Positions 3,282 to 47,319 of a stretch of DNA of 64,000 nucleotides are shown in pieces (position 1 is the stretch's first letter; each line of letters begins with the position of its first letter). The translations under genes were made by a program, and so were the position numbers. The stretch comes from Vermamoeba vermiformis (taxonomy: Eukaryota), in assembly GCA_045837725.1 (NCBI GenBank), contig JBEWZL010000227.1:248001-312000 (forward strand), given 5' to 3'. The notes beneath the pieces are model-generated. The model was not told the origin of the DNA. It saw nothing but the letters and a program-made list of their open reading frames with translations, and made no database searches.

Positions 3282-3620
3282 ATTGTAATCGATTCGTATT
3301 TTAATAAAATATTCCGTAACGACTATAAATAAAGCGGTCCTGTCATAAGTTTGACAGCTTCGGAGTTAAATTTTGAAATTGCGATCAAACCCAAAAATAC
3401 TTGCAATAAATTCATGAACCCGAGACATAGATGAAGGAACATCACTAATTTTGTCGGGGGGGTAATTTTGGCTCGGTTTTTCTCTTCAGTGCCGTATGTT
3501 GCAATTGGAGACCACAATCTCCTGTCGTTTGAACGCGGATACGACTGGACTTATGACATGTTGACACGTGTCAAACGACGAAAAACGACCAACCGCGATT
3601 GACTAGGTAACCGTTACTAT

Positions 3621-5370
3621 TTATTTGAACCAAACTTTTTGGTAATTCTGATGTCTACCAGGGTATTGCCCTTTTGATGCCAAATATGGCATATGTAGTC
3701 CAAGCTGCGACCCGGTCAATCCCGTAGTTTGACGCGTCGTGAAATTCAGTTCAATCAAGTTTGTTAACTTCGTCAACGCAGATCCATCACTTTTTTTGCA
3801 AAAGACGCTGAGGTAAGTCAATCGGGTCATATGCAGCGAGATCAAGTCCAGTTTGGCAGATGAAATATGCGGCAGCGTAAGCTCTACTAGTCGTGTTAAC
3901 TGAATGACGTGGTTGACTTGCGTTTTAATTTTGTTTGTTGAGTGGAGGCTGGAAGGAATGTGCAATTTAACCAGATTCGTTAAAGCCGTTAACCAAGGCA
4001 AGGAAATCCTGTCACCTTCTTGGACTGTCAATTGCGTCAATCGTGTCAACTTAGCAATGCTGTCAATGACATTGCGTTTCGACGAGGCTAAACTTTCAAC
4101 GACCAGACTTTCCAAATTAGGCAACAGTAGGTAATTCAGAGGTACAACTGTCCAAATGGTGCGTACATTGGTTAGATTGCCTAAAAAGGAAATATCTTGC
4201 AAGTTAACGGCCTCAATCGAAGTCAAGTTTCCTGAAGGGAATTTTCCAATGCATCCAGTGAGGTTTAGTTCTTGCAGTGCGGTGCAATGTGACATATCCA
4301 AATTAGGAATAGAAGGGCCGAATCTGGGAAATTTCAGTTGTAGTTTTGTCAGGTGTTCACCGTTGAGCGGTAAGATTGCTGATATATTGTCACATTGTTC
4401 GGCAGACTGTAGTGTCAAACTTTCCAAATTTGGCAAGTCTTTCATGAACGATGCAAGTGGTTCTATGACATCTGGCGTGATCTGGCGGAGTGAAATGGCA
4501 CGTAATCTCGTCAGTGATCTCCAAGTCAAAATATCTTGCTGGTGGACACCGTGAAAGAGCAGTGTGTTGACTGACAGGTTCGTCAAGTTGATATTCCGCG
4601 AAATTTCATAAACATTCGCTGAAACAGCGCCGTTGATCTCCAAAGATTCCAAGTTGGTGGTCGATAATTGAATTGGAAACGGTACGGTCGAGTTGATATG
4701 CAAAACTTTCAATGCAGTCAATTTGTGCAAAGATATAATAGCTCCTATATTATACAGCACTAATTTTGTGAGGTTTGTGCAATGGTCAGTGCAATTTGTC
4801 ATTGAGGAGCCGAATTCGAGATCCAGTAATTGTGATGCTGATTTTGGGAGTGGTGCAATCCCACACCCAATACTTAGACGAGTTAAACAAGGTGGTAGAG
4901 CTGTTATTGAATCATCCGTGTATTGAAAAATTCGAGCGGATTCGAGGTGCGAATATTTTTGAAGTGGGAAATGCACGTTCTTATTGAGGTTATTTCCCTC
5001 AATATCTGATACATCAATCTCCGTTATGCTTTCTATCTTTGATAACTCTTCGTAGATTTTGTCCCAATCGGCCTGCATCATTGTGACCACTGGTATGTTT
5101 TTGAATCTGACACGATCTGCAGCTGAGGCTTTCAATATTCTAATTGTGCTACTTAATTTCTTAGGAGAAGGTGATTTTATGATATATGTACTTTTCTTGA
5201 GCATGCGAGCGATTGTTGAACAAGTTTCGCGACAGATGTGCCAAGTCGCCACATCCGTGAACGAAAAAATTTGTAGAATTGTTTCAAGAGGCAAAAATTC
5301 CTATAGATAATATTAATAAGCGAAAATAAATAAATATAATTCTAATTTAATTTCTAAAATGACTTACCAT
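3621..5370 (-). CDS. F-box + leucine-rich repeat protein
   Basis: ATG-only first exon (5368-5370, then gtaag). Exon 2 opens with EFLPLETILQIFSFTDVATWHICRETC (F-box-like), followed by many LTNLxxLxL repeats in the 557-aa ORF. Confidence 0.85.
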
Positions 5371-7089: not shown

Positions 7090-8843
7090 TTAAAGGAGGT
7101 CTCTGATCAATCGGTATGTGTCCCGTACAGGTGACAGCTCAAACGTTACCAAATATGGTAATTGACTCTCGAGTATCTTAGCCAACCCTTTGAGTGCCTT
7201 TGGTGAGTTGAAATATACTTCGATCAAATTTGTCAATCTCGTTAAGGCAGATCCGTCTGCATCTTTGCTTCGTACAGACAGAAAAGTCAATCGCGTCAAA
7301 TTCAGTGAAATTGAATCGAGTTCGTGTGCCGTAATAAGACGCGGTAAAATCAGTTCTTCTAACTTTTGCAAACTTGTAATATGTTTGACGTGTCTTCGCG
7401 TTGATTTTTTGTAAGCAAAACGCGCGTTATTTAAAATGTGCAATTGAACGAGGTTCGTGAGCGATGCCAAATAAGGCAAGTCCATGCAATTGTCATCTAA
7501 TATAGTCAAACGTGTCAAACGTGTCAACACTGTGATAGTTCTAACCAGGTCAGCTTCCATAAGATACCGTGTCAGAAACAACTTTTCCAAATTAGGAAAG
7601 TCGTTGAAATTAATTTCGGCTGCAGTACGAAGTGATCGCACGTTGGTGAGACTTCCTAAAAAGGTAATTTTGTTTGTTTGGAACGCTTCTATTGACGTCA
7701 AGTTGTCTGCAGGTACTTTTGCGGTGCCAAGTGTTAAGAGTATATCACGTAGTGTGGTGTACCGTGACAGATCCAAATAAGGAATATTGTAAGCGTGAAG
7801 CTTTGTCAGGCGACTGCCATCGAGCGGTAAAATTGGTGAAGAGAAACCGTGAAGTGTTAAACTTTCTAAATTTGGTAAGCCGCTCATGAAAGTTTCGACA
7901 GCTTCCGAGTCTGGTGTTACGTCTCTTATAGTTAGTTCTCGTAATCTCGTTAATGAGCTCCAAGCTGATAGATCTGGGACGCCTTGCGTCCATTTGATAG
8001 AATTCATGCTTATTGTTAGCTTCGTCAATTTTGAATATTGCAAAACATTCTCTTGTTTGACATCGGCGTTCTCGATCTGCAAAGATTCCAAATTTGGCAT
8101 CGACGGTAGATGTACTAAATTGGGCATGCCAGTATTAGTGATTTGCAAATCTTTCAATGCTGTTAATCTTTGTAAATGAACCTCACGTCCAATATTCATT
8201 ATTAATCTTGTGAGATTTGTGCAATATTCGTCAAAGGATCCACCGTTGGCAGATCGATAAGACAAATTAAATTCTAGATCGAGCAACTGTGATGCAGACG
8301 GTTGGTGCAGCATATCAATATTAGCTTCGCTTAATTTGGTAAGATTAGGCGGCAGTGTCATTGCTGTGCTAATACTTGGGTAAAATCTAACGGATTCAAG
8401 TCTTGTAAACATTGCCAAAGGAAAAAGAATGTACGGCTGTCTTGGCAATCTATTGAACTTAGTTACATCTAATTCAGTGATGTTCTCCAACGTGGATAAT
8501 TCTTCATAAATTCTTCGAATATTTGCTGGCGTGGTTGTGGCTTTTGGTATTTTTGTAAATCTGACACTGAGCCGATCTGATTTTGAGCGCCTCAACGTTC
8601 TTACTATACTATCAAAATCCTTCATTTGCATTGATTTGATGACAGCTATGCGTTTCTTGAGCATGCGAGCGATTGTTGAACAAGTTTCGCGGCAGATGTG
8701 CCAAGTCGTCACATCCGTGAACGAAAAAATGTGCAGTATTATTTCAAGCGGTAAAACATCCTGCAGGAAATGTTAATATTTTAAACGAATAAATATTAAA
8801 TAAAAATTGTCTAATTATTTTCCAAACCAATTTAGCTTACCAT
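7090..8843 (-). CDS. F-box + leucine-rich repeat protein (paralog of 3621-5370)
   Basis: ATG-only exon at 8841-8843. Exon 2 opens DVLPLEIILHIFSFTDVTTWHICRETCSTIARMLKK, near-identical to the first copy, followed by LRRs. Confidence 0.85.
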
Positions 8844-9968: not shown

Positions 9969-12900
9969 TTAATCGTCCGATTCCTCGTCCGAGTCGCCAT
10001 AGAATTGGAAGTTGCGCAAGTTTCTGAGTTCGATGTACTCGACAGCACTGTTCCAAGGACTATTATACAAACCAATTAGTCATCTGTGTACCGCGTAGTA
10101 AAGAAAATGTTGAGTACGTACTCGAAGTCTTGGGTTTTGTTTCTACGGCGGTTTCCGTAGTAGCTTCCTTCTTCGTACTCCCAAGCATCGTCATCAGCCT
10201 CAGCAGCCTTCTTGGCCTTATTAGCCAACTTGACCATGACTTCAGTGCCCTCTTGGACCTCCTCAACACGCACAATCTTGCGGGGGTACTTGGAGCTCAA
10301 CTCCAACAAGCGCGTGTAGATGTCAAGAGTCTGCTTGGCAGGCACGTGTTGGTCGCGGATCGTCTTCAACAACGCAGCCATGACGCCGTCAAGAGGTGTC
10401 AAACCAGAGTGGTTCTCTTTGTTCATGACTTGGGTCTTCATGCCAATGTGAACGGTGGCTTCCATCTTGTTGACGAGCTCATTGAAGATCTCCAAGTGTC
10501 CCTTCTTGGCAGACATGTGCAACGGGAAGTCACCAGAGCTGTCGGCAATGGTAGTGGTAGCCGAAGCCTCCAAGAGGATCTTAACGATCTCGACGAAGTT
10601 GTTGTGCGTAGCAATGCTCAATGGCGTAATCTTGAAGTGCTCGCTGACAGAGTCCTTGATTTGTTGATCACAAACTAGAAGTTACGTTAGCATGACACGT
10701 GTCAAAGATTCGCGTGTATAACTTACCCTTCAAGATGATGCCCAAGCATTGAGCGTTACCGCTAGCAGTGACAAAGTGAAGCGCGTTCCAACCTCTTTCT
10801 TTGTCCTTGATGGTGACATCAGCCTTAGCCGCCAACAGCAAAGTCAGACACTCCAAGTATCCGCTCTTTGCTGCCATGTGCAAAGCAGTTTCACCACGCT
10901 TGGTCTTGTTATTGACAATATCGAAGCTCTCCTTTGATGCCAACAAAGTTCTCAACGCCTTAGCGCTGTTTCTGCTTGCGGCATAGTGAATAGGAGTACG
11001 ATCCTCTTCGTCCACAATGACTGTAGTGAAGTAACGATCCTTGTTGAGCTTGACAATGTTGTTCTTCTTCAAGTACTCGTCCCAGATAGGCTCAGCCTCC
11101 CTGCAATGAAAAGGTAAGTTAAGATACGTCATCGTAAGTAGCAAAGTACGTACTTCAACAAGAACTCAATGGAAGCAGGTTGATTGAAGTAAGCGGCGTA
11201 GTGGATGGCAGAGACACGTGGGATCTTGGGTTTTTGAGCCTTAGGTTGCAACTCAAGAGCCCAGTTGACCTTCTTGCCACCGACGTTAAGACCGTGGTAG
11301 TAGTCATCGCTGGCCTTGACCTTTTGTTCTTCTTCCTTTTGCTTGAGCTCGGCCTCGACAGGATCGTACAAACCACCGTGTCTAAGAATGACCTTGGCAG
11401 CATCAATTTTGCCTTGAAAACTGTTAGACAAGGCTAATATAATAATGGAGAATACTTACCGTGGGCAATAGCCAATTCAAAAGCATTGAGGTTGCCGTTG
11501 TTGATCTTGGCACGCAAAAGAGATTCGATCAAAGGCACTTGGACTGCAGCTTCTTCTTTCTTGCCAACACGCTTGGGCTTCTTCTTGTGGTTCTCAGTCG
11601 TCAAGACCTTCTCGACAACGGTCTCAAGACCCTTAGCGTCCTCCAACAGGACAGCGGCTTGCAACAGGTTGTGGCCGTCATCGTTAGGTGCCTTCAACAA
11701 GGTAGCAGGCGACGTCGTGCAAATGAACTTCATCTTGGCGAGTTCATTGGGGTCGTATTGAGATACATCAATGCCGACCAAAGGATTGATAGGGAACTGA
11801 TTGACGAGATTGTAGTTGTTGAGTTGGTAGTTGGTGTTGACCAATGAAGGCTGGTTGCCCTTCTTAGGCTCGGGCAAAGGCGTGTATTGCTTCTTAGCGA
11901 TCTCGATCATCTCGGCAACGCAATCATAGTGCCCGCGCTGAAGAGCGATGTGCAGAGGCGATTGCCCGGTTTCAGTAAGCTTCGAGCAAATGTGCACTTG
12001 TTTAGGTCCATCGCGTTCAATCGTCAGCTTCTTGATGGTCTTAAGATCTCCTTCCCAAGCAGCAGTAAACAACTTGTGATAGTCGTCCTGAAGTTCATCG
12101 GGGTATTGGGTACCTCTCCAGCGGTAAGAATAGTGGAATGTGTCGGGGTCTTCAGTGAACTCGTTGCGTTCGGGGATTGAGTTGTAAGTCAACTCCACTT
12201 CGTTATTGGCTCCTCCAATCTTTTTGGCAGTTTTCTTGCCAAAGGCGAAAGCGCTCTTAACCGCCTTTTTGAAGGTACCTTGCTTGGTGGCGTCTTCTTT
12301 TGGTGGCAATTTGCCCTTAAGAAGATCTTCCGCTCTGCGAATTCTCGTGCTAGCACTAATCATATGCGTTAGCTAATCGATACGCTTCATCGTGAAAAAT
12401 TGTAAGACTTACGCGGCAGGCGGGTGTTGTTTGCGTTGGTCAAAAGCCCACTTGGCAGGGTGTTTAGCAGTGATCTTCATATCTTGCAACTCGTGCGCCT
12501 TGTAGCTTTGCAACACCTTGACGCAGGCAAGAAGATCTTTAAGATCTTTCTTCTGAGTCTCGATTTGTTCCTTGATTCTAGTGATCTCTTCGGCAGGCTT
12601 TGGCTTCTTGTTTTTATTGTGGGTTTTGAGGTAATCCTGTAGCAGATGTGATTAATTAAAACGTTTTCTGATAAATAATTGATAATAATTACCTTCTTCT
12701 GTTGCTCCATGACCCACTTGGTAAACGCGTCTTTAGCATTTTGGATTTTTTCGTCAAGATGCTCAGTGTCAACCACAGCTTCATCGTTGTTTTCCAGTCT
12801 GCGCATGTTCGCTTCAAGATTATGCGACATTCCATCGAGTCTACCGAGAATGATATCCAAAGGCGTGTTGTTGCCGTAAATGTAATCGTGATCGATCTTC

Positions 12901-15900
12901 TTTGAGCACAACTCTTCCATCAGATCCGGATCGCTGACGGATTGAGCGGCAACGTTGATAGGTTGTTGAACATTTTGCATGACATTGCCCCAAACATCGC
13001 GAACGTTTTCGAGTTGGGCATCAGCGTCGTTGACCAACAAGAATTCAGCGGCCTTATGACTGAATTGCAAGGCAATAGTTAGCGGTGATTGCTGGCTCTG
13101 TGACACTTTGTTGACAATTTCTTTCTTGGACTTAGGAGCGGTCTTGTCAATGTGTTCGACAAACAACTCAACAAATTCCACACATTCAGGATTACGGCAT
13201 GCCTGCACCAAGTATTACTAAGAATATTCTAATATGAGGCTATCAAATAAGGTACTTACGTTGTGAAGTGCGTTCTCGTGCTGCAAGTTGAGGTCTTCGA
13301 CTTTAGCACCGTGCTTCAAGAGTAACTTGGCAGCATCAAGGCGCTTGCCAAGAACAGCCAAAGAAAGAATAGGAATGGTGCAAGTAGACAAGCCGTCGTT
13401 GTGGTTTTGATGATTGATGGCAGTGAGTTTGGCTCCGTTAGCAATCAGAATTTCCATGATCGTGGTCCAGCCAAAGTAAACGGCGTAGTGCAATGCAGTC
13501 ATTTTCTGATGAAAGAAAAAAACGTTCATAAGTAAGAGTTTAAATATAGTTAGTTTGAGCTTACGTTATCCCAGTCCTCAAAGTTGACGTCGAACTTCTC
13601 CTCGTCAGGACCTTTAGGCTTCTCTTTGACTTCCTTTTGTTTCTTGAAGAAGCCCTCGCCGTCGCCTTCGTCATCATCTTCGCCATCACCATCTTCGTCG
13701 TCTTCGCCTTCGCCTTCACCGTCTTCATCTTCTTCCATTTTGTCCTCATCTTCTTCGTCTTCACCGTCGCCGTCTTCATCGTCTTCTTCCATTTTATCGG
13801 CCTTCTTCTTGGGTTTGCCCTTCTTGCCTCCAGCAGCGGCGGCAGGTTCGTCTTTCTTTTCGGGCAACTTCTTGCCGTGTTCAACGAGCAAGTTGACAAT
13901 GTCTTCGCGACCGTACTGAGAAGCCAAGTGCAAGGGAGTGCGGCCGTCATTCAAACGCGATGAAATCTTGGCACCAGCGTTCAACAACAACGCAGCGCAC
14001 TCCTTTGCGTTAGCGTAGACAGCAATATGGAGCGGAGTTCTTCCGACCGGATCGCGTGCCTCGACATCGGTACCTTGAGCCAAAATACTACAAAGGACAT
14101 TAATACATGCTAATTAAGTCAGATTGGTCACTTACGCCTTAACGGTGTTGATGTTGTTCGAGTTGACAGCAATGCAAAGCTGTTCGGTGTCAGGTTGGAA
14201 GTAAGTACCCTCAGACCAATCACCTTCAGTGATAGGATGGAAACTGCCAATAGATTGACGACCAGGGTCCAAAGTGATCCACTTAAGGTCACCATCGACG
14301 AAAGGCCAATCGGGATCTGACAAAAAAAAAACATGTTAAAACATCGTGCACAAGACACTTGACACCTCCTTACCTTTTTCGGCTTCAGGGTTAGGAGGAC
14401 AAGAACCGCAGCAATCCTTGACAACTTCTCCGATAGTGCCGAAGAAGCAAGGATGGGTGTGGATCTTCTTGTTAGGGTCGTACCAAGGACTGTTCAAAAT
14501 CAAGTCCTTGCTGTACATCAACTTGCGGATACGCTCAGCGTCCCAACGAGGACCCCAAGGCAAGAACACGCACTGAGAGACGATTAGCGATAAGAGTTAG
14601 ACTATGCAATTACTTACGGAATAGTCGGAGGCGTTAGCACCACCCTCTTGCTCCATACGCTCCTTTTGCCAAGCATCGCTCTCGAATTGGCGATTGAGTC
14701 TTCGCCAGTATTCACCCTATCAAATAAAATATCAAAACCAATTCGAAGGTGTCATGTTGACACGTGTCATTCACTTACACGCAACTCGAAGCGACCGGGA
14801 CGCAACTTCTCCAAACGCTGTTGTTCCTTAAATCTAGTACGAGCCTCGGGAGTAGAAAGCTTCTCCAAGAGCAACAACTTGGCCAAGCCGTTGACATTCT
14901 CGAACTTTCGCTCGAAGATCTGAGGGTTGACGCGACCTCTGTTCAACGAGGGAACGGCGACGCAAAAACCACTAGAAAGTCAAACTTATGAGCTCACAAT
15001 GCTACAAACAATTGCTAGGCGTGCTTACCGCTCGCTGTATTTGGCCAAACGCATTTCGTAGGAAGGACTGCGTCTGCTCATATCAACAGTATTGATGCGA
15101 CGAACAATGGCACGGTGAGCACGAGGCACCATCATGACGTTCTTGCCGTTGTAACCAATAGCGCAGCAATCAACATCAAAGCCCTAGGTAATGATTAGCA
15201 TTGGGCCTTCAGAGGATCAGATCCGCGGCCTACCATCAAAATTTCAGCAGGAGACTTGTAGAGACGAAGGACGATTTGAACGTGTCTGTAAGGGTATCTG
15301 CTAACAAGGGTGATGGCGTGCTTGCTTCTAAAAGCGATTGACTCGTACGGATTCGTATCCGAGATCGTTTGGAAGACTTGCTCCAACTTCTTGGTACCCT
15401 CTGCGATTGTAGTTAGCATTTGATTAATCAATTCAGTCGCCTTACCTTCTTCGTCCAAACCATAGATAAAGATATCAATGTCAGAGCTCTTGTAAGCAAC
15501 GTTGTGGTAGTAGTGGCGGATGCCAGCGTTTGACGAGGCGTACTTGGCAGGAACAGGGAGTAAGCAAGCCAAAACGGAACCTGCGTAGTAAACGTTGTTT
15601 TAGTGGGTGCTATGATGGTCAAGACAGAACTAATACCTCCAGCCACAAAGACGTTATTCCAATCCAGATCACGAAGTAAACCTTCAGTGAAGACATTGAA
15701 GCAGCGGTTGAACTCCTTTCTGTCATTGATAGCAAGGTGACCAACAGGAGGTTTATCAGAAGCGAAGACCTTGGGCTCTTGTTCCTGCAATTTAAAGTTT
15801 AGACTTTGCACAAATTTTGCTTGCCAGAAAATTAAAGCGCCACACCAAGAATATAAACAGGATATTGTTTGATAATATTTGTCAAGATAAAAGGGCTTTG

Positions 15901-16605: not shown

Positions 16606-19263
16606 TTACAAGTCATCGGTAATACGTTCAGCCGTCAATTTCGCTGACAACAGGACCAAAGGTAAACCAGATCCGGGATGCGTAGATGCTCCAGCGAAGT
16701 ACAAATTATCAATGCTATCGTGTTTGTTTCTAGGGCGCAGATAGCCGACTTGCATAAAGTTGTGACTAAGACCGAAAGTGGCTCCCTTTTCCAAGTTGTA
16801 ATCGCGTTGCCAATCGAGCGGTGTGTGTGACACTTCGTTGGTAATATGAGACTCAATATTGTCGCCAATCAACTTATTCAATCGCTCAATAACATACGCA
16901 CGAGCCTTATTAAAACGATTTGTGAGTTGTGGTACCCGGGTCCCAACTGTGCATGATTTTTAGTCCTTACCTTTTGTCTAGTCTCCTCCCACTTCTTCGG
17001 GTTAATGTTGTTAGTCAAGTGGCCCACGGGTACTAAGACCATCAAGGAGTCTCGTCCTTCAGGCGCGACAGTCGGATCTGATCTCTTGGGTGCGTTCACG
17101 TAGAAGCTAGGCTCCTCGGGCAAAGTGTGGTCTTCAAAGATTTGGTCGTAGCTCTTCTTGTAATCGCCGTTAAGGAAGATATTGTGGTGACGGATCTTGT
17201 CGTAGATCTTGTCACAGGCCCAGTAAAACATGATAGTGGAGCTCGTGTAAGCCATCTTGTCGACCTTAGGAGCTTGAGGATCGTTCTTCAGCATGTATTT
17301 GTAGACCCAACTATCGCAAATGTCAGTACGGGACAAACACCAGTGGAAAAAACTTACGGCAAGTCAGCGTTAGCCACGACAATGTCAGGGTTGTTGAGGC
17401 GAGTGCCGTCTTTGAAAGTCAACAACTCAACCTTCTTAGTACTGGCGTTGGTCTCGATTTGATCAACCTCCTTGTTAAACTCGTACTTGACGCCGAGTTC
17501 CTTGCCAATGTCATACAGCGTTTGCGCTATTTGATACATGCCACCTTTAGGGTACCTGCAATCATCTCGTTAGATGCTAATCCTCGCTTTGATGCTACCA
17601 ATTGCTTACCAGACACCATCTGAGTACTCAGTGTATTGAAGAAGAGAATAAGTTGCCATAGCCTTATACGGGGACAAGCCCAAGTACATGTTTTGGAAGG
17701 AGAATGCTTGACGCAACTTCTCGTTTGAGAAGAATTTACTGACGTAGTCGTAGAAGTTGTTGAAGACTTTCATGCGAAGCAACAATGGCAACTTGAAGGG
17801 GTTGAAGTAGGCCAAAAAGTGCTTGAAATTTCTGCCGACGACGTGCATGACAGACCACGAGAAGTGGAAGTGTCCTTCTTTCAAGAATTGCAAGAAGTTC
17901 CTATTTATCGACATTACCTTCTATTGCACGATAGTATAGCTATTAAACGTACTCGTAGCTTCCAGGCTCAAGTTGTTCGAGGGTTAATTTCATCTTGTTC
18001 ATGTCGTTCGAAATGATGACAGTTTCGTTATCCTCGAAGTGAACTCCGTAAATAGGATCGCATCTGATAAGTTCCATGTAGTCCTATAAGATTTCGTTAA
18101 CAACTTTGACTACATTAGATGCCCAGATCTTACGTTAATATTGCGACCGAGATCTTTGTAAGTTTGAGCAAAGAATTGAGGCATAAGCATCAATGAAGGA
18201 CCAACGTCGAAGCGATGGCCGTCCTTTCTAATGATATCCAAGCGACCGCCTATTGCGTAGAAGTTTAGAAGCGGAACGGGGAAATCAACAAATGTGAGTG
18301 GTCGCGTGACTTACCGACGTGATCTTTCTTCTCGTAGACAGTGACGTTGAATCCAAACTTAGCCAATCTGGCGGCAATGGCAAGTCCTCCAATGCCAGCA
18401 CCAATAACGCTGACTTTTCGCTTGCGGGTGAGTTCAGGATTAGCTGCGAGTTTGATCTTCGTGTTCAAGTGTCCCCACAGCAGATCGAAGTTGAGTTCGA
18501 CTAAGTAGATGCCTTGAACAATAACGATGTTGGTGATAGCGAAGAACACGGCTTCTTCGATCGGCAAAGTGTTGAACAGCTTGATCCCGGTAGAAGTTCG
18601 CTCGGTGATTGACCAAGTGCCAGCGTTGATGGCGATACCATCAGTGATCCAGTAGAATAAAGTAGGAATAGTTGTAGCAAGCGCAAGTCTTCCCAAAGCC
18701 TTCGACTTCAAGATCTGGCGCATTCCAAGAATAACTTGAATGCTGATAAATGCCAAATAATAGACCACAATGGTTTTGAGGTAGAAGTAGTTCTGGTTGG
18801 AAGTGTTCAACATTACGGCGATGGTAGCCATAACAGCAGCCAAACCAATCTTGTTCGAGAGACCTTTGCCCATCCGGAAACCGCTCTTTCCTTTGGAGAA
18901 TTTCGCGACTTCGTCTTCTTGAATAGACTCGACTTGATGAGGAGTCATAACAGCAAAGTACACCAATGACGTAATCAGCGTTTGAATGCCAAAGAAAAAG
19001 TATTCTTCGTAGGGTACATCCAGAAAAGTTCCAATGACTGGCTTTGATGAGTAGCCCCAGACGCCATTACGTACTAAATATACGTCCCAAGGTGTTGCTG
19101 CTGCGTAGACTACGGCCAATAAGACAGACAACGTAGCCAATCTGATGTAAGTAAATCCACCTCGCGCGGATGCTGCTACACCAGCAATGATGAGCGCTGG
19201 AATAGTAAATATGAGATGGAATCGAGCGTATGTCAACTCGAATGAATTATTTAGTTCGTTCAT
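16606..19263 (-). CDS. crtI: Lycopene cyclase (membrane CrtYc/d type) - phytoene desaturase (CrtI) fusion, about 7 exons
   Basis: Exon 1 has two cyclase repeats (TPWDVYLV..GVWGY..VPYEEYFFF; ITDGIAI..GTWSI..LPIEEAVFF) and continues in frame into KVSVIGAGIGGLAIAARLAKFGFNVTVYEK. Later exons give GGRLDIIRKDGHRFDVGPS, AFSFQNMYLGLSPY, GVWYPKGGM and LYFAGASTHPGSGLPLVLLSAKL. Confidence 0.93.
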
Positions 19264-19651
19264 TGTTGGACGTAAAAATTAATTATAAACAAAAAAGTCT
19301 AAAATTTTTTCGCTCTTATTGTCGCAATTCGGATATTTTAACACGTGTAAGCACCTCAGCGCTCGCGACGTAGCTCCTTTTGACTACTTTAGTCCGATTC
19401 ACCGCTGCCATTTGTGAATATTTTGTGCAAATAAGTCAGATCCAAATAAAATTTCGTTAATTTTAGACTTTCTGCGGCAATGTTAAATTAATCATGTGGT
19501 TGGCTTGCTGAGCGGAAGACTAACCTCCAAGATTTCCCGCTGTCAAAGCCAACTATGGTAATGTCGCTGCAGAACGTTTCCGAGCGCGACGAGCAAATAA
19601 AAATTTTTTTCGATCCGGCCAAGTTAGTTTAAACCATTATTTTCGCCGAGA
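19264..19651. promoter_or_regulatory. Putative bidirectional promoter between crtYI and crtB
   Basis: Head-to-head ATGs 388 bp apart. Function inferred from geometry only. Confidence 0.5.
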
Positions 19652-20785
19652 ATGAACGCAACGCCTTCTGTATTAATATCTAACCACTTTACGAGTACGC
19701 CAAAAGCGGACGCCAAAGTGGATTCGGATCTGATCATAAAGAAAGCCAGCAAAAGTTTCCACTTTGCTTCACTGCTTTTGCCAGAGCGGATTCGACCTGA
19801 CATCACCGATTTGTACGCCTTCATGCGTTACTTGGACGATCTTATTGACGAAGACGAGCTCAGCATCGAAGAAAAGCGCTACGTGGTCGATCAGTTTTGT
19901 CCGCTCGTACCAAAGGATGCGCAACGAAAGCCGTACGAACTGAACAAAGATATTATGAACAAATTCAACGCATTGCAGAAAAAATATGGATTTGGCAACG
20001 AGATCCTCATGCTCTTCGTTGAAGGCTTGTATTGGGATCTTGAAAACAAGGAGTATAATTCTCAACAAGATCTCGTTCAGTATTGCATTAGAGTGGCTGG
20101 TACCGTTGGATTGTTCTTATGTTATATTATGGGGCGTAAGGACGAATATACGCTGTATTACGCGTGTTGCTTAGGTAAGCCCGATTTCAGATGTGACAAC
20201 GAAGAAAATTTGATTTGATTGCTGAATATTGTAGGAATTGCTATGCAACTTACGAATATTGCTCGCGACGTTGGAGAGGATCTTGACCGCAACCGAGTCT
20301 ATTTGCCGCGTGAATGGCTCTCAGCAGATTTGAAGCAAAAGTTCAGCCGATCAACCAAGTTAAACATTGCAGAGCTGTCGAACAGTGATCGAGAAAGCTT
20401 TGCCGATGCAACCTATCGTTTGTTATCGTTAGCAGACTGTTATTATACTGTTGCTGGTGTCGGAATCGATATGCTGCCTCAAGATTGCAGAACTTCGATC
20501 AGGACTGCCTCGAAAGTGTATCAAGAGATAGGCAACGAAGTACGAAAAAATAATTATAATTCGCTCGATCAACGCGCTTACGTGGCATTTTGGAAGAAGA
20601 TCTGGCTGTTTTTGCAAATCGTGCTCATCTCGTACATAATGTTTTCCTTGTTGGGCTACGTGACGTTAGACGATATTAACGACATCAATCCGAAGACTTT
20701 TGCTCTTATTGACAAGCCTGCAGTGCAAGAAACGGTTAGAATGGTCATGTTTGGTGCGCGACCTCCCACAGGCAAAGTGATGTAA
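19652..20785 (+). CDS. crtB: Phytoene synthase (2 exons) with C-terminal hydrophobic segment
   Basis: SKSFHFASLLLP, LYAFMRYLDDLIDE, YCIRVAGTVG, GIAMQLTNIARDVGED, RVYLP; intron at about 20175-20234. Confidence 0.92.
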
Positions 20786-21252
20786 TTGTAACGCTTGAAT
20801 AATACAATAAACGATGTAAATATTAGATAGTAATTTGCGTAGTATTATACCATCATGTTCTGCGATAAAATAGAAAGCAGAAAGCGTGTTTCCGTTGCAA
20901 CAACGGATTCGAGATTATCTTGGCTTGTTTAACTCAAATAATTACCTAATTATTATGGCCATCAAAGACACGTGCCCAAATTATTTTACCGTGAACGACT
21001 GCCTTTCAGCTCGATCTTCGTTTTTGGCGGGATTTGACCGGTGCCCAAGCCGAGTTCCGCACCAACGTATAGCAAAAGAGAATAACGCGCTTAGGTGAAG
21101 TTATTAATCAATCATATTGCCAGCGTGTTGGGGTCCGTTTCAATTTTCAAATAAAAATCAAACAAGAAGGCGAAATTTGATAACTTTATTCTTCAGCTTA
21201 TTCGCCTGTGATCGACCACATTAGAGCTTGATATTAATATTAAATAATCAAG

Positions 21253-23164
21253 ATGGGCAATTGTAACAAACCTGGTAATTATTCAATAATACTGCAGATT
21301 TGTAATGGGATCGAGAATAATCTTTTTCTTATTCTTTTACGATAGAGACGGATACGAGCTCAACGACAATTCAAACACAACAGCAACAACAGCCTAAAAA
21401 TGTGGATTAGTATGCAAATATAATTATTCAGCTAATAATATTTAATTTTCAAAATAACGGATTCAAGTTCATAATTAGTCTTGACGGTATATTAATCGTT
21501 ATATATTTTAGTGATTACATGTGCAAGCTACTATTATTAGGTATGTAATTTTTGATCCATGTAGAACACGAAGCTAAAAATTGCTGCATCCATTTCTTAT
21601 GGGAAGACCGTTGGAAACTTCTATTAATTTGTTCTCTTAATATCTTTAACGCTAATATTTATATAAAGGCGACTCTGGTGTTGGAAAGAGCGCTCTAATG
21701 ATGAGATTTGCGGTAAGTCAACGAAACAACGGATCAGCAACAGACCGATCAGATCGATTATTCTGCGCTATTGGCTTTATAATTTAAATTAACTTATAAT
21801 ATAGCATTAGATCAAAATTTCGCCTTTATTAAACAATTACTTTCGGTGGCAGCCTCGAGACAATTATTAACTTTTTTTCTTTAGGAAGACGCATTTAAAG
21901 GAACATTTATTAGTACCGTTGGCATTGACTTTGTAAGTAATTAATTAATATCGTTATTATTATAGTTTCCCGAAGCTTCTTTCCTACCAAAGTTTAGCAC
22001 GGGATGCGAACACAAAAAAAATGTCACAATTAGGACCCTAATTGTAGACAAAAGATCTTCATAATCAAATAACGCTTAGTGAATATAATATAATAACCCA
22101 TAATCGAACAACGGTCTCGATATGACAGATCCGCTATTTTAAGGGTTGCATTATGAATCTCATATTTTTCTCTTGCAGAAAATGAAAACAGTTAATATTG
22201 GAGGCAAACGCGTTAAAATTCAAATTGTAAGTATACTTAAGAATACACGAAGAGGACATTTGACATCAAATCAGACTATAATTTTCTTTCTTCCCTTTGC
22301 AAAAGAATACGCTCAACAACATTGATTCTAACGTGTTTATTATTATAGTGGGATACTGCTGGCCAAGAACGATTCGTAAGGACAAAAAGAATTGATTTTT
22401 TTTCCAATAATTGTGCATTGATGAACACGTCCAACTAACGTCCATTATTTTCACGTACAGCGAACAATTACAAAGACATATTATAGAGGAGTAAGTAGTG
22501 CTCGGCATTGTTAACATATATATACCTTTGATTATGATATTTGATATATACATAATAAGTGATAGTGATGCGAAGTGGTGGTAGATCTTGTGTTTCGTGT
22601 TCTTACAGAGACGTTTTATATTATAGGCTCAAGGCTACGTATTGGTATTTGATATCACAGCCAAGGACTCGTTCGATCACGTCAAGTACTGGCTCGGAGA
22701 AATTAAAAAGAACGGCAATGACTTCGTGCCAAAAGTGCTCGTGGGAAACAAATCAGGTACGTCTTCAGAATCATTTGCAACGTGGTGATAACGATACGTA
22801 CACGTGTTGTATATTGCATGACACGTGTTCGATAAAAATTTATGCAAATTACATCGAGATTACGTTTTCGTTCCGTAACCGATTGACTAAATTTTATTCG
22901 TAAAGATTTGGAGGATAAACGAATGGTTAGTAAAGAAGAGTGCCAGGTACGTCAAATATACATATATAAACACTTCTATATGACTGTATATAAATATTCT
23001 ATGCATAGAAATTTGCCGAAGAAAAGGCGATCCCGTTCGTAGAGGCCAGTGCGAAGGACGGAAACAATGTGCAGGAGCTGTTTATCAACCTCACAGAACG
23101 ATTTATCTCTAGTACCCAGGCCCAAGAACGTACCCAAGAACGGGCGAATGAAGAGAGCAAATAG
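21253..23164 (+). CDS. Rab1/Rab8-like small GTPase (about 11 short exons) with atypical termini
   Basis: Spliced protein: [114 protein letters not shown]. Confidence 0.9.
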
Positions 23165-26390: not shown

Positions 26391-28112
26391 TTAAGAACAA
26401 TGACGTAGATAAGGCATCTTGCTAGTCAAATTCTCGCAGAATGCTAATCGCGCATTACCAAGACCACGAATGTCTTGCAAAGACGTCAAAGCAGACAAAT
26501 GTCGACCGAAGAAAACACCTTCTTCTGCTGGAGAAATGCGCAAAAAAGTCAAATGATTCAACGCTGTAAATAACAACACGTTTTCTTCGCTTCTCCAATG
26601 ATAAAACACCAGCCTCCGCAACGTTGTTATCTTCACTAAGCAGTCTATCAATTTTTCACTACTGTTTGTGCCATTGCAAAAAGAGGTTAATTTTAAATTG
26701 TCAAAATTATAGGCAAAATCTTCGTCTTTTAAATTGATATTTAAAGTGAGCGCTGACAATTTCGATAATTTTGATAAATTATTGACAATGCTGGCCAGTG
26801 GTGCTAATAATGGAATCGCCAAACGTTCCAAAATTGTTAATTGGTCTAAATTTAGCTGCTCGTAATCTCGAGGAATTTTTCTGCCGTTCAAATCGAGGGA
26901 CTTCAACTTGGTCAAAGCATTGACAGTGCTGATATTATTTGCTGAATATGCCTCTAATGATGTCAAGTTGGTAAGATAACGCAAGTAATCCAAATCATTG
27001 GTGACTCCGCGCAATTCTAACGATTCTAATTTTTCGAACTGGATCAAGGATTGCACTTCAAAGTTTCCAACTAACGACTTTAAAGTTGTCGATAATAGAT
27101 TGGCTAGTAATCTATCTTTGTTTCTATCACGAATATCATCATCTGGTGTTGAATCATCGATGTCAAACTTTTGCAGATCTGTCATGGCTGTCAAAAATTC
27201 AAATAGTTTGTACTCAGCATTTGACGGCCAATAAATGTATAATTCTCGTAGCTTCTTTAACTGCGAATATTGATTCAAATGATCCACTGGAATGTTGTCG
27301 CAGAGCATTCGCAAGTACGTTAGATTCGTGTTTGTGTGAAAAGGTAGAGCTTCATTTGTACACAATTTTAGTGATTCTAGCGACGTTAATTGGTCCAAAT
27401 GAATGTCTATAATTTCTGTACCAAAGCTTTCGTATTCGAGGACTTTCAAGTTGCAAAACTGTTTGAATTTTTCGACGGATGCATCCGTTGGTCTAACTAC
27501 TCTTAGATATAGCTTGGTTAACTTGCTAGGGTTCTGTAATTGAGTGAATGGATCGATGCTAAATTTGCCGGAGTGATTTAACTTCAAACACTCTAGATTT
27601 GGTGTCCCTTTCAGAATTTGAGCGAGTTCTTTGGATCCAGCACTTAAAACTAATTTTCGAATTTTAAGGAACTTAGTAATAAACCCTGGGGGAGGATTCT
27701 GCCATCTAAGAAACTCCCATTCCTCGATATTGGTCAGATTGAATTGATTTCGTTAACTTCATCCAATCTTCAAATGTGATGTCTTCGGCAAGCCTTTCTT
27801 TGAATATAAATGACCTTAGATTTGTTAGTATTGATATCGCTGAAACGACGTCTTTGACTGGCATATCAAGTTTGGACTTTGCGAACGAAAGTGAGATTAG
27901 ATGTGGGATCTTCGATAAATGCTCGGTAATGCTGAAAAAATTGTTGTCATTTGCTAAATATATTCTAAAATTATCATAGTGAATAATGTTGAACCATTCT
28001 TTGTTTGCTAAACGAAGAGTTCGTTTCGGATGGATCTTGCATCTAAAAACGTCGTAATCAACTGCCATAGCTCTAAGGGAATACAACCAAATATCCCTCT
28101 TTCTTTATCCAT
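26391..28112 (-). pseudogene. F-box + LRR gene with two frameshifts
   Basis: MDKERGIFGCIPLELWQLITTFLDARSIR continues as TLRLANKEWFNII only after a shift at about 28025. A second shift at about 27745 leads into the long LRR frame. Confidence 0.7.
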
Positions 28113-29363: not shown

Positions 29364-31102
29364 TTACAGTACAAAAATAATTGCAGACAAAACGAGCGAT
29401 GAAACAACAACGAGCGAACCACTCGAAATAGAACTCTTCGGGGCCTTGACTGGCGATTGAACGGGTTCGGGACTCACTGGCGGTGCTTGAGGGGCCTCGA
29501 CTGGTGTGTCGCTTGAGGAGGTATTACAGCAGTGCAAGTATATCCGTCACCAGTAAAGCCATCGTTGCAAGCACACGAGTATCCAAGCATTTCATTGACA
29601 CAGTGTGCATTTGAATCGCAGCTGTACGTTGCGTTGTTGAAGCAGTGGTCGGATGGGATCAGCCACAAATCGTTGCTAGCTCCACCGCCAATGCCACCAA
29701 GCATGAACAAATCTCCATTGAGGCTCCGTCCCTTTGCTGTGCCGTGAAAATAGCGACCAGGCATCACGGAGCCAGGAGTGCGGTAGTGAGTGAAGTTGCC
29801 GAGAAGATTGGATTCGTTGTACACCAACTTCCATTGTTTTGACGTCTTGTTGAACAGCCACACGTCATTGAGACCTTGACCACAAGCCATGATAAGTGTG
29901 CCATCCTTACGATCGACAAAGGAGGCAGTTTCTCTTGCTGAAGGATTGTTGTCTGGATGGAAGTCTTCAGAAACGACTGTTTGAGCATTGTTTTTCGTAG
30001 TCGCGTCAGAGCCACGTTCAACTTGCCATTGCGTGGTGCGAGTATCAAACGACCAGACGTCGCTGAATATAGAACCAACGCGGAGAGGAACGCTGACTTC
30101 AGATCCTCCAAAGAGCCACACACGATCGTTCTCATCAATATCACAACCAGGTCCTTGGCGACCACCATAAAGACTGTCTGCGTACACTGTTTGCACAAAG
30201 CTGGTGTTGCCACTGATGAACGTCCATTGCAGCGATGTCGTGTTGAAGTGCCACACACGATTGGTTGATTCAGCGGGTGAAATCATCACGCCACTTAGCA
30301 GCCAAAAGTTGTTCAACGAGTCAGTCACAAAGCAAGCCGCTTCCAACGTTCCCGCGGCTGGAGAGACACCGTCTGGTCCTTGCATCCGTGTGAACAAATA
30401 CGATGTTGTATTGAACATCCACAGCTCACAGCAGTATGTAGTCGTGAAGAACCAAAGGTTGTCGTTGTGATCGATGGTTGAGATGGTGTAATACACTGGA
30501 CCAGGTGCGTTGTCTGGTGAAGGTACGCCAAGCACACCAGGGTTGCGGGGAACTGTGAAGTTGCCAGGACCAGCGACCCATCGGTAGAGATCTGTCTTCG
30601 GATCGTAGTTCCAAACTGTCGTCACGTACACATTATTCGGATTAATACCGAATGAAATCCAAAGTGTCTGTTTCGAGTCCATTAAAACCATTGGGATTTT
30701 TTTACGACCACCAGCGCCAACTGAAATATTACTCCAAACTCCGCGTTCTGGAAACTGTTCGACCGCATCTACGCAAAATAATTTAATTAGTTACAACAAA
30801 TATCCGATTATTATTATTATTAATAAATCGAATTTATTTATCGTCACTTAACAACTTTGTAAAATTATTGAACGAATCCGGAAATACCGGATGGGTATTT
30901 TAGGGATCCGTAAAAAAAAATACCGGATAGATCTTGGTGCAACAAATGCCTAGGTGCCAAGGCACTATTAATTAATGCTTAACTTACCTGCTACAACGTT
31001 TGTTGGCGATAACCAGATCGGCGCAACTTGTGCCGCCAACGATATTGACACGAACAGGCCCACGAACAACAAAACGACCAAAAGTACAACTCTAGATGTC
31101 AT
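29364..31102 (-). CDS. Secreted Kelch/galactose-oxidase-like beta-propeller + EGF + Pro stalk + GPI-like tail protein
   Basis: Signal exon MTSRVVLLVVLLFVGLFVSISLAA; Kelch-like motifs VWLFGG..SDVWSFD and LFMLGG..NDLWL; EGF CDSNAHCVNEMLGYSCACNDGFTGDGYTC. A single-base shift near 29510 separates the tail ...SGSLVVVSSLVLSAIIFVL*. Confidence 0.8.
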
Positions 31103-31644: not shown

Positions 31645-33146
31645 TCACAGCACAAAAACAAATACAGATAAAACTAGCGATGAAACAACAACGAGCGAAC
31701 CACTCGAGACAGAACTACGGCTCTTCGGGGCCTTAACTGGCGATTGAACGGGTTCAGGGCTCGCTGGTGGTTCTTGAGGGGCTTCGACTGGTGATTGAAC
31801 GGGTTCGGGACTCACTGGCGGTGCCTCTTGAGGAGGTATTATAGCAGTGCAAGTATATCCATCGCCAGTAAAGCCATCGTTGCAAGCACACGAGTATCCA
31901 AGCATCTCGTTGACACAGTGTGCATTTGAATCGCATTCGTAAGATGCATTATTGAAGCAGTGGTCAGATGGAATCAGCCACAAATCGTTTCTATTTCCAC
32001 CGCCAATGCCACCAAGCATGAACAAATCTCCGTTGAGGCTCCGTCCCTTTGCTGTGCCGTGAAAATAGCGAGCAGGCATCGCCGAGCCAGGAGTGCGGTA
32101 GTGAGTGAAGTTGCCGAGAAGATTGGAGTCTCCATAGATCTGTTTCCATTGCTTTGACGTCTTGTTGAACAGCCACACGTCATTGAGACCCCCTTGACCA
32201 CAAGCCATGATAAGTGTTCCGTCCTTGCGATCGACAAATGACGCAGTGTCTCTCGCTGAAGGATTGTTGTCTGGATGGAAGTCTTCAGAAACGACGTTTT
32301 GAGCGTTGTTTCTGGTGGTATCGTTTGATCCGCGTTCTCCATTGCGTGCGGGACAAACGACCAGACGCGCGACAAAGACCGTGAGAGCCGGCGCTGCCAG
32401 ATCCTCCAAAGAGCCCAAGATCTCGTCAATATCACAACCATCCTTGGCGACCACATAAAATTGCGTACATTGCAAATGTTGCAGGAACGTCCATTGCATG
32501 ACTTGAGGCAGAGACGTACACACGCCACAGCAGCCATGTTCAACGAGTCGGTCACAAGCAAGCTGTTTCCAACGTTCCCGCGGCTGGAGAGACACCGCTG
32601 GTCCCATCCTAAGATGGTTTGAACATCCACAGCTCGCAGCAGACTGGTGAGAACCAGTTTGTTAGGGTGGGAATACACTGAGCCAGGGCGTCGGGAAGGA
32701 CGCCAGTCACCAGGCAGGACCAGCGACCCACGGTGAGATGTCCGGACGAGTCCAAGCTGTCATCAAGTGTGAAAGCACTCGAACCGAATGCAATCCAAAG
32801 CGTCCTCTCGAGTCCATTAAAATCATCGGGATTGCTCTGCGACCACCGGTGCATGAAATATTACTCCAAACGCCACGTTCTGGAAACTGTCGAGCACTAG
32901 TATAGAGTTTTTCTGGTGAGTAATTCTTTGTCGTAGTATTTTAGGGATCCGTAAAAAAAAATACAGGATAGATCTTGGTGCTACAAATGCTTACGTGCCT
33001 AGGCACTATTAATTACTGATTAACTTACTTGCTGCAACGTTTGTAGGCGATAACCAGATCGGCGCAATTTTTGCCGCCAACGATGTTGACACGAGCAACA
33101 AAACGATCAGGTACACAAAGCGAGATGATGAAGAGATTGATGCCAT
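31645..33146 (-). pseudogene. Tandem paralog of the Kelch/EGF gene, 5' half riddled with small deletions
   Basis: 31645-32330 is intact and close to copy 1. 32330-32900 is colinear with copy 1 but has many short deletions. Signal exon MASISSSSRFVYLIVLLLVSTSLAA. Confidence 0.65.
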
Positions 33147-47034: not shown

Positions 47035-47319
47035 AAAAGTTTGAGTTTGCGGTTTCGTTTGCGTTAATAGGTAATAATTGACGTTCTAAGGAGCCTCCGT
47101 TCATGCTGCATGAAAATCGGACTTGTGGTGCACCGTTGTCAGGCTAAATCTAATTCGGAACAATCCGGGTAATTGATTAAAACACCCTTTGCCATAACAA
47201 ATGCTGTGCTTTAATTGAAGGTTGTATCGTCTCAATGCTGGACGAGACACAAAGAAGACAAGGGCGAAAAATAATTACATTTTTTTCATCGAACTTCAGT
47301 ATCCTTTTAGCTCGCAAAA

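Follow-up and report, generated by a model that had tools for sequence, protein, structure and literature searches.

The carotenoid locus and its fusion gene

The 64,000-nucleotide stretch analysed here (hereafter the window; positions 248,001 to 312,000 of contig JBEWZL010000227.1, Vermamoeba vermiformis assembly GCA_045837725.1) carries a divergent pair of predicted carotenoid synthesis genes. One encodes a lycopene cyclase (Y) running in frame into a CrtI-type phytoene desaturase (I), hereafter the Y-I gene, and the other, crtB, encodes a stand-alone phytoene synthase (B). The outer coordinates of the pair, 16606 and 20785, are the stop codons of the Y-I gene and crtB, respectively.

The Y-I gene (16606-19263, minus strand) consists of 7 exons encoding 774 amino acids (aa); the joined model, built with 775-aa database relatives as guides, has 0 internal stops. 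Exon 1 (18315-19263), which encodes aa 1-316 and one base of the next codon, contains the ATG, the whole cyclase, the linker and the first ~29 CrtI residues, and is 88% identical to residues 1-322 of P0011, one of these relatives. An earlier note on this stretch had placed this exon at about 18316-19263; the start at 19263 holds but the end is one base off, the exon ending at 18315 with the donor GT at 18314. Then follow exon 2 (18134-18249), exon 3 (17953-18083), exon 4 (17610-17900), exon 5 (17358-17555), exon 6 (16971-17310) and exon 7 (16606-16905), the last of which includes the stop codon and the conserved C-terminal ...GASTHPGSG... of CrtI. All 6 introns (18250-18314, 18084-18133, 17901-17952, 17556-17609, 17311-17357 and 16906-16970) are of the GT-AG type and 47-65 nucleotides (nt) long. 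For the third intron, a 28-nt candidate (TAC/GT...CAATAG) was dropped for a 52-nt one (GA/GTACGT...AAATAG/G) because the latter fits the ...GSFENFLQFL... of the relatives and is the one skipped in the X5 contigs described below.

The continuity of the two domains can be read without any splice prediction, as the earlier note had claimed. A stop-to-stop open reading frame (ORF) on the minus strand (18265-19278) runs as one unbroken frame from the ATG at 19263 through the cyclase into the start of CrtI, free of stops and frameshifts between the domains. Along this frame PYEEYFFF (aa 84), PIEEAVFF (aa 234) and VIGAGIGG (aa 288) occur in that order, so that the two cyclase repeats with PxEExxFF motifs reported earlier are both present in exon 1, and the two hydrophobic repeats read straight into KVSVIGAGIGGLAIAARLAKFGFNVTVYEKKDHVG. 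Repeat 1 (~aa 10-102, 18958-19236) carries PYEE at aa 84-87 (19003-19014), and repeat 2 (~aa 160-255, 18499-18786) carries PIEE at aa 234-237 (18553-18564). The linker from the last membrane helix to the Rossmann fold (~aa 258-283, 18415-18492), delimited by alignment, differs in length among Y-I relatives, being ~19 residues longer in Protostelium. It is followed by the GAGIGG motif of CrtI (aa 288-293, 18385-18402), which binds flavin adenine dinucleotide (FAD) and matches NAD_binding_8 at 38.9 bits.

Splicing of the gene is suggested by contigs of run X5 (presumed RNA; 95-99% alike), which skip exactly all 6 predicted introns, each of these being CT..AC on the plus strand. One X5 contig of 1127 nt joins exons 7, 6, 5 and 4, and an X5 contig piece matching 18314-18504 spans the cyclase end, the linker and GAGIGG. 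The RNA check across the cyclase-desaturase junction that had been proposed is thus answered in part: this piece is continuous, but it comes from a relative and is presumed RNA. Judging from its divergence, the X5 source is probably a close relative or another strain. In addition, three relatives (P0011, P0013 and P0014) are uninterrupted 775-aa ORFs on JGI contigs of 2426-2460 nt, which we infer to be transcripts from the size expected of a spliced mRNA.

Cyclase and desaturase domains

The NCBIfam lycopene cyclase domain model TIGR03462 matches exon 1 at 118.2 bits (cut-off 39.4; E 1.7e-34) in 2 stretches, the best over repeat 1 and the second over repeat 2, where the Pfam Lycopene_cyc match (aa 169-248) also lies. 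Both PxE[ED] motifs, the GxGxxG motif and the C-terminal CrtI stretch were found in 6 of 6 full-length Y-I sequences. According to the accessible text of PMC12016392, PXE(E/D) is the universal signature of the CrtYc/d-type cyclase class, in which an extra transmembrane segment links the halves. Hydrophobic 19-residue windows of the Y-I protein are confined to aa 15-257. An AlphaFold model of P0011, generated from a 145-row alignment of Y-I proteins, bacterial CrtIs and stand-alone cyclases, has a mean predicted local distance difference test score (pLDDT) of 87.1 and a predicted template modelling score (pTM) of 0.80. It places seven long helices within residues 13-264 (13-34, 40-66, 86-106, 137-153, 158-185, 188-214 and 236-264), followed by a Rossmann-type domain; the intervening linker (residues 261-280) is of low confidence, with block mean pLDDT of 66-73. 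In this model the cyclase part thus has the predicted layout of a polytopic membrane protein with an extra helix joining its two halves. A sequence search of the PDB with P0011 returned no match to residues 1-261, the other hits being Rossmann-type and starting at 262-285.

The window was also compared with L001 and L002, two metagenome contigs of a relative that are near-identical to each other, and the ratio of nonsynonymous to synonymous substitution rates (dN/dS) against both amounts to 0.15 over cyclase codons 1-270 and to 0.04 over codons 271-316. Judged from these codon comparisons, the exon 1 coding sequence is under purifying selection. Its intact family features suggest that the Y-I cyclase would cyclise lycopene to gamma- or beta-carotene.

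The exons after exon 1 match Pfam Amino_oxidase piecewise. The TIGR02734 crtI_fam model (cut-off 238.1) scores 460 bits with P0011, 450.9 with P0002 and 427.7 with P0022, the last two being amoebozoan relatives presented below. GAGIGG at aa 288 is matched at the other end of the domain by the C-terminal CrtI pattern at aa 742, ...G-A-S-T-H-P-G-S-G..., which we take to be the PROSITE signature of the family. Among solved structures, Foldseek aligned the P0011 model with 4rep, a gamma-carotenoid desaturase (E 2.2e-34, target-normalised TM-score 0.89), and with 4dgk, the Pantoea CrtI (E 7.7e-27, target-normalised TM-score 0.75). The same two entries lead the PDB by sequence (E 1.3e-77 and 1.8e-75, respectively), both over query residues 283-775.

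The phytoene synthase gene and the shared intergenic region

The crtB gene lies on the plus strand and encodes 357 aa in 2 exons. Exon 1 (19652-20174), starting with the ATG at 19652, contains DDLID at aa 62, and exon 2 (20235-20785) contains DVGED at aa 186 and the stop codon; we take these two to be the Asp-rich motifs of the synthase. The 60-nt GT-AG intron between them (20175-20234; GTAAGC...TTGTAG) contains an in-frame stop. The SQS_PSY profile (PF00494, cut-off 26) matches the exons at 89.4 and 88.4 bits, which cover profile positions 1-149 and 148-262. The best NCBIfam models for the two halves are 15-cis-phytoene synthases, with HpnD close behind, and the gene was assigned to phytoene rather than to squalene or presqualene synthesis because of the neighbouring Y-I gene. 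Near its C-terminus, ahead of a tail, CrtB has a helix-like hydrophobic segment (aa 291-315, 20582-20656). The close relatives P0289-P0291 keep it; the nearest bacterial CrtBs have a shorter one or none. The segment may hold CrtB at the membrane in which the fusion protein sits.

The two ATGs are separated by 388 nt (19264-19651), exactly the head-to-head spacing given for the stand-alone crtB in the earlier note, and this divergent intergenic region is a candidate bidirectional promoter. Within it, a block of ~53 nt (19403-19455; CGCTGCCATTTGTGAAT...TCAGATCCA...AAATTTC) is far better conserved with L001 and L002 than its flanks, in what amounts to a two-species comparison given that these contigs are near-identical over the block. 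L001 and L002 are 78-79% identical to the window over exon 1. In L002, crtB (3140 to 2037, 72% identity) lies on the opposite strand, head-to-head with exon 1 at 3502-4449; consequently, the head-to-head pair is conserved. The layout kept in this relative (72-78% protein identity) and the conserved intergenic block are consistent with co-regulation of crtB and the Y-I gene, and the block is a candidate for a regulatory element shared by the pair.

Distribution of the cyclase-desaturase architecture

The closest relatives of the Y-I model are the JGI proteins P0011, P0013 and P0014, with 707, 709 and 696 identities, respectively, in 775 alignment columns. More distant is P0002 (765 aa; 466 identical in 776 columns), a complete TRINITY ORF in the EukProt transcriptome of Luapeleamoeba hula (Discosea, Acanthamoebidae). 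P0022 (798 aa), from the EukProt transcriptome of Protostelium nocturnum (Evosea, Variosea), can be aligned over its full length with P0011 (45% identity) and P0002 (44%). P0181 (668 aa, JGI) is an N-truncated Protostelium-like member. Among named relatives, the host of the Y-I gene thus appears closest to the amoebozoans L. hula and P. nocturnum, and the partition of the pathway into Y-I plus B in a protist, as first described for this stretch, is borne out by the separate crtB, the fused Y-I gene and these two relatives.

A word-indexed search for longer proteins gave 4 hits among 8000 scored candidates: the P0001 cluster, which belongs to the close family, P0002, a bacterial-looking cyclase-Blh protein and a 1450-aa I-B-Y-Blh protein. 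When exon 1 was searched exhaustively with HMMER against 1.84 billion representatives, 905 hits reached E <= 1e-3 and only 2 of them E <= 1e-30; these two were a close-family fragment and P0022. To count architectures, all 45 representatives of at least 397 aa among the best 150 were scanned with Pfam. Cyclase-SQS_PSY (Y-B) proteins account for 29 of the 45, cyclase-Blh and cyclase-Caroten_synth proteins for 4 each and I-B-Y-Blh proteins for 3; I-B-Y, cyclase-P450, cyclase-polyketide cyclase, I-Y (P0052) and Y-I (P0022) occur once each. The earlier concern that the architecture might already be common is therefore met by a count of 1 Y-I among these long cyclase-bearing representatives, versus 29 Y-B. 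The Y-I architecture is real and recurrent, but rare. In the ESM Atlas only clusters of stand-alone bacterial and archaeal CrtIs, and no large Y-I cluster, were found, a blank that in this collection proves nothing.

Other odd cyclase fusions were seen among these representatives (P0149, P0126, P0099 and P0113), the types including cyclase-cytochrome P450, cyclase-polyketide cyclase/START-like and cyclase-Caroten_synth-acyltransferase proteins. A 1058-aa cyclase-synthase-PIG-M protein probably results from the merging of gene models.

Origin of the three activities

Cyclase phylogenies were built with FastTree (156 rows) and with a quick IQ-TREE run on 60 of the 156 rows. This smaller set retained every rare fusion type, 12 Y-B rows out of 29 and 26 stand-alone cyclases, of which 22 had been picked at random; three long-branch rows were dropped. 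The Y-I cyclases, together with one 247-aa fragment, form their own clade in both trees (support 98 and 99). The Y-B cyclases (96-97) and the I-B-Y(-Blh) cyclases (99 with FastTree, 98 with IQ-TREE) each make up a clade apart from it. In the IQ-TREE cyclase tree Y-I and Y-B fall on one side, with weak support (83). The Y-B representatives are presumed to be fungal from their architecture.

The best 120 of 6225 hits to the I domain are stand-alone proteins of ~493-543 aa, 50-56% identical, and fusions; five of these 120 bear an organism name, four being Chloroflexota and one Acidobacteriota. When prokaryotes were scanned with one genome for each species, 80 loci with 48-55% identity were retained, of which 77 are labelled as Chloroflexota lineages, although the scan patterns were derived from an alignment that already contained Chloroflexota-type sequences. 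A 121-row tree of I domains, with its root placed on the I-B-Y desaturases, unites the six Y-I domains in one clade (97) whose sister is P0052 (91), and these together fall into a basal polytomy with Chloroflexota CrtIs. An origin from a fungal-type desaturase is not supported, the top I-domain hits being bacterial or Y-I proteins in a ranking that included no named fungal CrtI.

P0052 itself is a fusion in the opposite order (I-Y), 807 aa long, on a 19,987-nt ENA contig. Its desaturase is sister to the Y-I clade (91; 43% identity) and its cyclase is sister to the I-B-Y(-Blh) group (95 in the Shimodaira-Hasegawa-like approximate likelihood ratio test, SH-aLRT). Since these placements differ, the two domains of P0052 have different affinities. 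Moreover, as the cyclase of P0052, the only I-Y protein found, does not group with Y-I, the I-Y and Y-I fusions look independent.

The bacterial loci resemble the window in how crtB and crtI are placed. A crtB immediately upstream of crtI and head-to-head with it is seen in 60 of the 80, the median distance between alignment ends being 303.5 nt. Of the other 20, 7 have crtB downstream and 5 upstream on the crtI strand, 1 has a divergent crtB at a greater distance, 1 fits none of these types and 6 have no crtB. Fifteen of the 80 loci contain a cyclase gene, which follows crtI on its strand at a distance of 1-5 kb. Operon read-through was rejected as the origin of the Y-I gene: the cyclase is downstream of crtI in 15 of the 15 cyclase-holding loci, so read-through would give I-Y rather than Y-I. 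Across the Chloroflexota loci (L081-L160), crtB and crtI apparently form a conserved divergent pair in Anaerolineae-type genomes. One locus (L154) has crtI, crtB and crtYcd in a row on one strand, and an Anaerolineae contig (L138:603-3699) carries two full-length CrtIs in tandem (603-2054 and 2248-3699), each 48-50% identical to the window I domain.

The synthase gives a different picture. In a 190-row crtB tree the window CrtB forms a long branch (1.42) without a firm placement; it belongs neither to the clade of Chloroflexota CrtBs (100) nor to those of the Y-B (99) and I-B-Y (100) synthases. Its best database relatives are bacterial proteins, 37-41% identical along their full length, and one carries the label Deltaproteobacteria. 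The separate phylogenies of Y, I and B that had been called for thus give the Y-I proteins their own cyclase and desaturase clades but leave CrtB unplaced. A joint transfer of crtB and crtI from Chloroflexota might be considered as a lead, the layout being matched and the crtB tree unsupportive.

A broader scenario, which we offer tentatively and regard as unlikely, would make the Y-I fusion an old amoebozoan invention preceding the split of Discosea and Evosea. A Chloroflexota-type crtB/crtI pair would have been captured whole, a cyclase would have been inserted in frame 5' of crtI, and the bacterial divergent layout would survive as a pair with a bidirectional promoter. If so, this would be the third independent eukaryotic welding of a transferred carotenoid pathway, and the only known one to join two consecutive steps with the membrane enzyme first.

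Function and alternative explanations

Taken together, these results make it highly probable that the two genes form a true carotenoid locus of an amoebozoan-type protist, in which a 774-aa protein combines a seven-helix CrtYc/d cyclase with a complete CrtI and a divergent gene encodes a stand-alone phytoene synthase with a hydrophobic tail. The catalytic activities, product, channelling, co-regulation and physiological role of the locus are predicted here from sequence. At the membrane, CrtB would condense two molecules of geranylgeranyl diphosphate into phytoene. The CrtI domain, kept there by its cyclase partner, would desaturate phytoene to lycopene, and the attached cyclase would close one or both lycopene ends to give gamma- or beta-carotene. 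The Y-I fusion would thereby couple two consecutive steps, in a pathway where the fungal cyclase-synthase fusion links the last step to the first.

Several observations weigh against this interpretation. The RNA evidence comes from a relative rather than from the strain of the window, X5 being only guessed to be RNA. A search for RNA runs with the window's own sequence listed none, and RNA-seq runs X21-X23, which bear the same species label as the best-matching DNA run, gave just 2, 3 and 4 reads, each 95-99% alike and in total too few to use. The CrtI family score and the fold were taken from P0011 (91% identical) and not from the joined protein of the window. The NCBIfam CrtB equivalogs reach 75-98 bits, compared with cut-offs of 480-550, in scans of half-proteins only. 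Pfam Lycopene_cyc (PF18916) scores 17.6 bits on exon 1, below its cut-off of 27. Finally, the best solved match, 4rep, acts on a gamma-carotenoid rather than on phytoene, so the desaturation could differ from the proposed one in kind and in number of steps.

This last point bears on the most durable alternative, namely that the desaturase is not a plain four-step enzyme. It would instead perform five steps, giving 3,4-didehydrolycopene, or also act on gamma-carotene, and with a monocyclase the locus would yield a torulene-like or other monocyclic pigment. 4rep is the best solved relative by both sequence and fold, the 775-aa JGI relatives are automatically named 'phytoene desaturase (3,4-didehydrolycopene-forming)', and NF058655, the bifunctional phytoene desaturase/3,4-desaturase model, is second-best in NCBIfam at 414.8 bits. 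This score is, however, below the cut-off of 640, and the other CrtI equivalog models (CrtID and both CrtD) are also below theirs, leaving only the general crtI_fam above its threshold. Automatic names are no test and, to our knowledge, the number of desaturation steps of CrtI enzymes is not readable from sequence. We therefore consider a five-step or gamma-carotene desaturase improbable, though worth keeping in mind.

Alternatively, the cyclase part could be a mere membrane anchor for CrtI, dead or repurposed, in which case the locus would make acyclic, lycopene-type pigments. CrtI enzymes work at membranes, so that a transmembrane tether alone would be selectable, and the cyclase activity is a prediction made for an exon that falls below the Pfam threshold. 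Yet both PxE[ED] motifs are kept in all six full-length members, which represent three lineages just 45-62% identical, the cyclase dN/dS is low, TIGR03462 is well over its cut-off with both repeats matched, and seven helices with conserved motif loops would be needless in a plain anchor. An active cyclase is clearly favoured, and a bare anchor is very unlikely. That the fusion is an artefact, whether from chimeric assembly, contamination by a bacterial contig or merging of gene models, is barely credible: fusions in draft eukaryotic genomes are often merges and the nearest stand-alone CrtIs are bacterial, but the join lies within one exon with no stop or frameshift, the six spliceosomal introns are removed in cDNA-like contigs, the neighbours are eukaryotic repeat, receptor and GTPase genes, and the same join recurs in independent assemblies (L001, L002, the JGI 775-aa proteins and two EukProt transcriptomes).

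The physiological role of a cyclic carotene made by the two-gene locus could be photoprotection or the supply of a retinal precursor. In the accessible part of Uzuka et al. (PMC6898599), 'phytoene desaturase' mRNA is reported to be induced by light in Naegleria sp., also by H2O2 in the dark, and by light in an Acanthamoeba sp. feeding on photosynthetic prey. By analogy, such induction suggests a photoprotective role here.

Comparison with known carotenoid fusions

The accessible text of Rius et al. (2023, PMC10016063) describes a bifunctional protein of Noctiluca scintillans, listed from N- to C-terminus as CrtI, CrtYc/d, as well as CrtIBY in thraustochytrids and CrtI-B-Y-Blh in Thecamonas. 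It also places two unnamed amoebozoan CrtYc/d sequences in a group with fungi, arthropods, cryptophytes and haloarchaea. As in Noctiluca, so far as that description goes, both activities of the window protein lie on one polypeptide in a heterotrophic protist and phytoene synthase is encoded elsewhere. Unlike the Noctiluca protein, compared here by description, the window protein has the cyclase first, and the Noctiluca CrtB is reported to be fused to a second cyclase whereas the window CrtB stands alone. Full-text searches of the literature yielded no description of an amoebozoan cyclase-first (Y-I) protein, with the supplements of Rius et al. outside their scope; the matches to 'crtYI' were operon names. 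The arrangement had been put forward as undescribed. Within the literature searched this stands for an amoebozoan Y-I protein, but a fusion in the opposite order is reported in Noctiluca, and same-order Y-I proteins are already present in EukProt and JGI data. The Y-I protein appears to be a second, independent cyclase/desaturase fusion, opposite in order, conserved across amoebozoan phyla and built on a bacterial-type desaturase.

The fungal CrtYB/CarRA/Al-2 proteins resemble the window protein in placing a soluble carotenoid enzyme after an N-terminal, two-repeat cyclase of the CrtYc/d type that has PxE(E/D) motifs and an extra connecting helix, and fungal CrtYB with a separate CrtI likewise spreads three activities over two genes. 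In the window, by contrast, the partner of the cyclase is the desaturase, and the synthase is separate and divergently transcribed. Furthermore, the Y-I cyclases branch beside rather than inside the Y-B clade, and the window CrtB falls outside the Y-B synthase clade. Like Y-I, the thraustochytrid CrtIBY (Iwasaka 2018) and Thecamonas CrtI-B-Y-Blh proteins occur in heterotrophic protists, where bacterial-type carotenoid enzymes have become fused naturally, probably after gene transfer. They differ in having 3-4 domains in the order I-B-Y(-Blh), I domains (CrtIBY/SAHNTO-type) only 24-29% identical to that of the window, and a separate cyclase clade. Chloroflexota (Anaerolineae) have the nearest stand-alone CrtIs (48-56% identity) and a crtB head-to-head with crtI as in the window; unlike in the window, however, their genes are separate and intronless, the cyclase where present is unfused, and their CrtB clade excludes the window CrtB.

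Natural fusions show which pathway steps gain from being tied together: cyclase and synthase in fungi, all three activities in thraustochytrids, and desaturase and cyclase in Y-I, where the cyclase would use the product of its fused desaturase. The Y-I protein could thus be a natural template for engineered carotenoid fusions and a clean test case for substrate channelling from a peripheral flavoenzyme to an integral membrane cyclase; metabolic engineers already build carotenoid fusions, as the accessible text of PMC6350077 describes. The family also suggests that carotenoid synthesis genes are present and conserved in several amoebozoan lineages, and its Chloroflexota-near desaturase adds a further probable bacterium-to-protist transfer to those described in the accessible text of Rius et al. 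(2023).

Genomic surroundings

The window is eukaryotic DNA with a G+C content of 35-48%, and the carotenoid pair is flanked by repeat-protein genes. Of the other ORFs in the window, 79 have at least 100 aa, and not one of these hit a carotenoid or opsin family. Many ORFs encode ankyrin repeats (10028-14113, 34135-35544 and 45372-48097), others leucine-rich repeats (3624-5300, 7093-8772 and 26394-27752) or Kelch/EGF repeats (29477-30790 and 31648-32661). On the minus strand at 39441-41592, several exon-sized ORFs match a seven-transmembrane receptor of family 3 (GABA-B/sweet-taste type) and one matches a periplasmic-binding-protein-like ligand domain, which suggests a single multi-exon gene for a G-protein-coupled receptor. 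Closer to crtB, small exons on the plus strand (22627-23164) encode a Rab/Ras-like GTPase (...VLVFDITAKDSFDHVKYW..., ...ASAKDGNNVQELF...), and this region is conserved with L002 (window 21174-22760 versus L002 53-1564).

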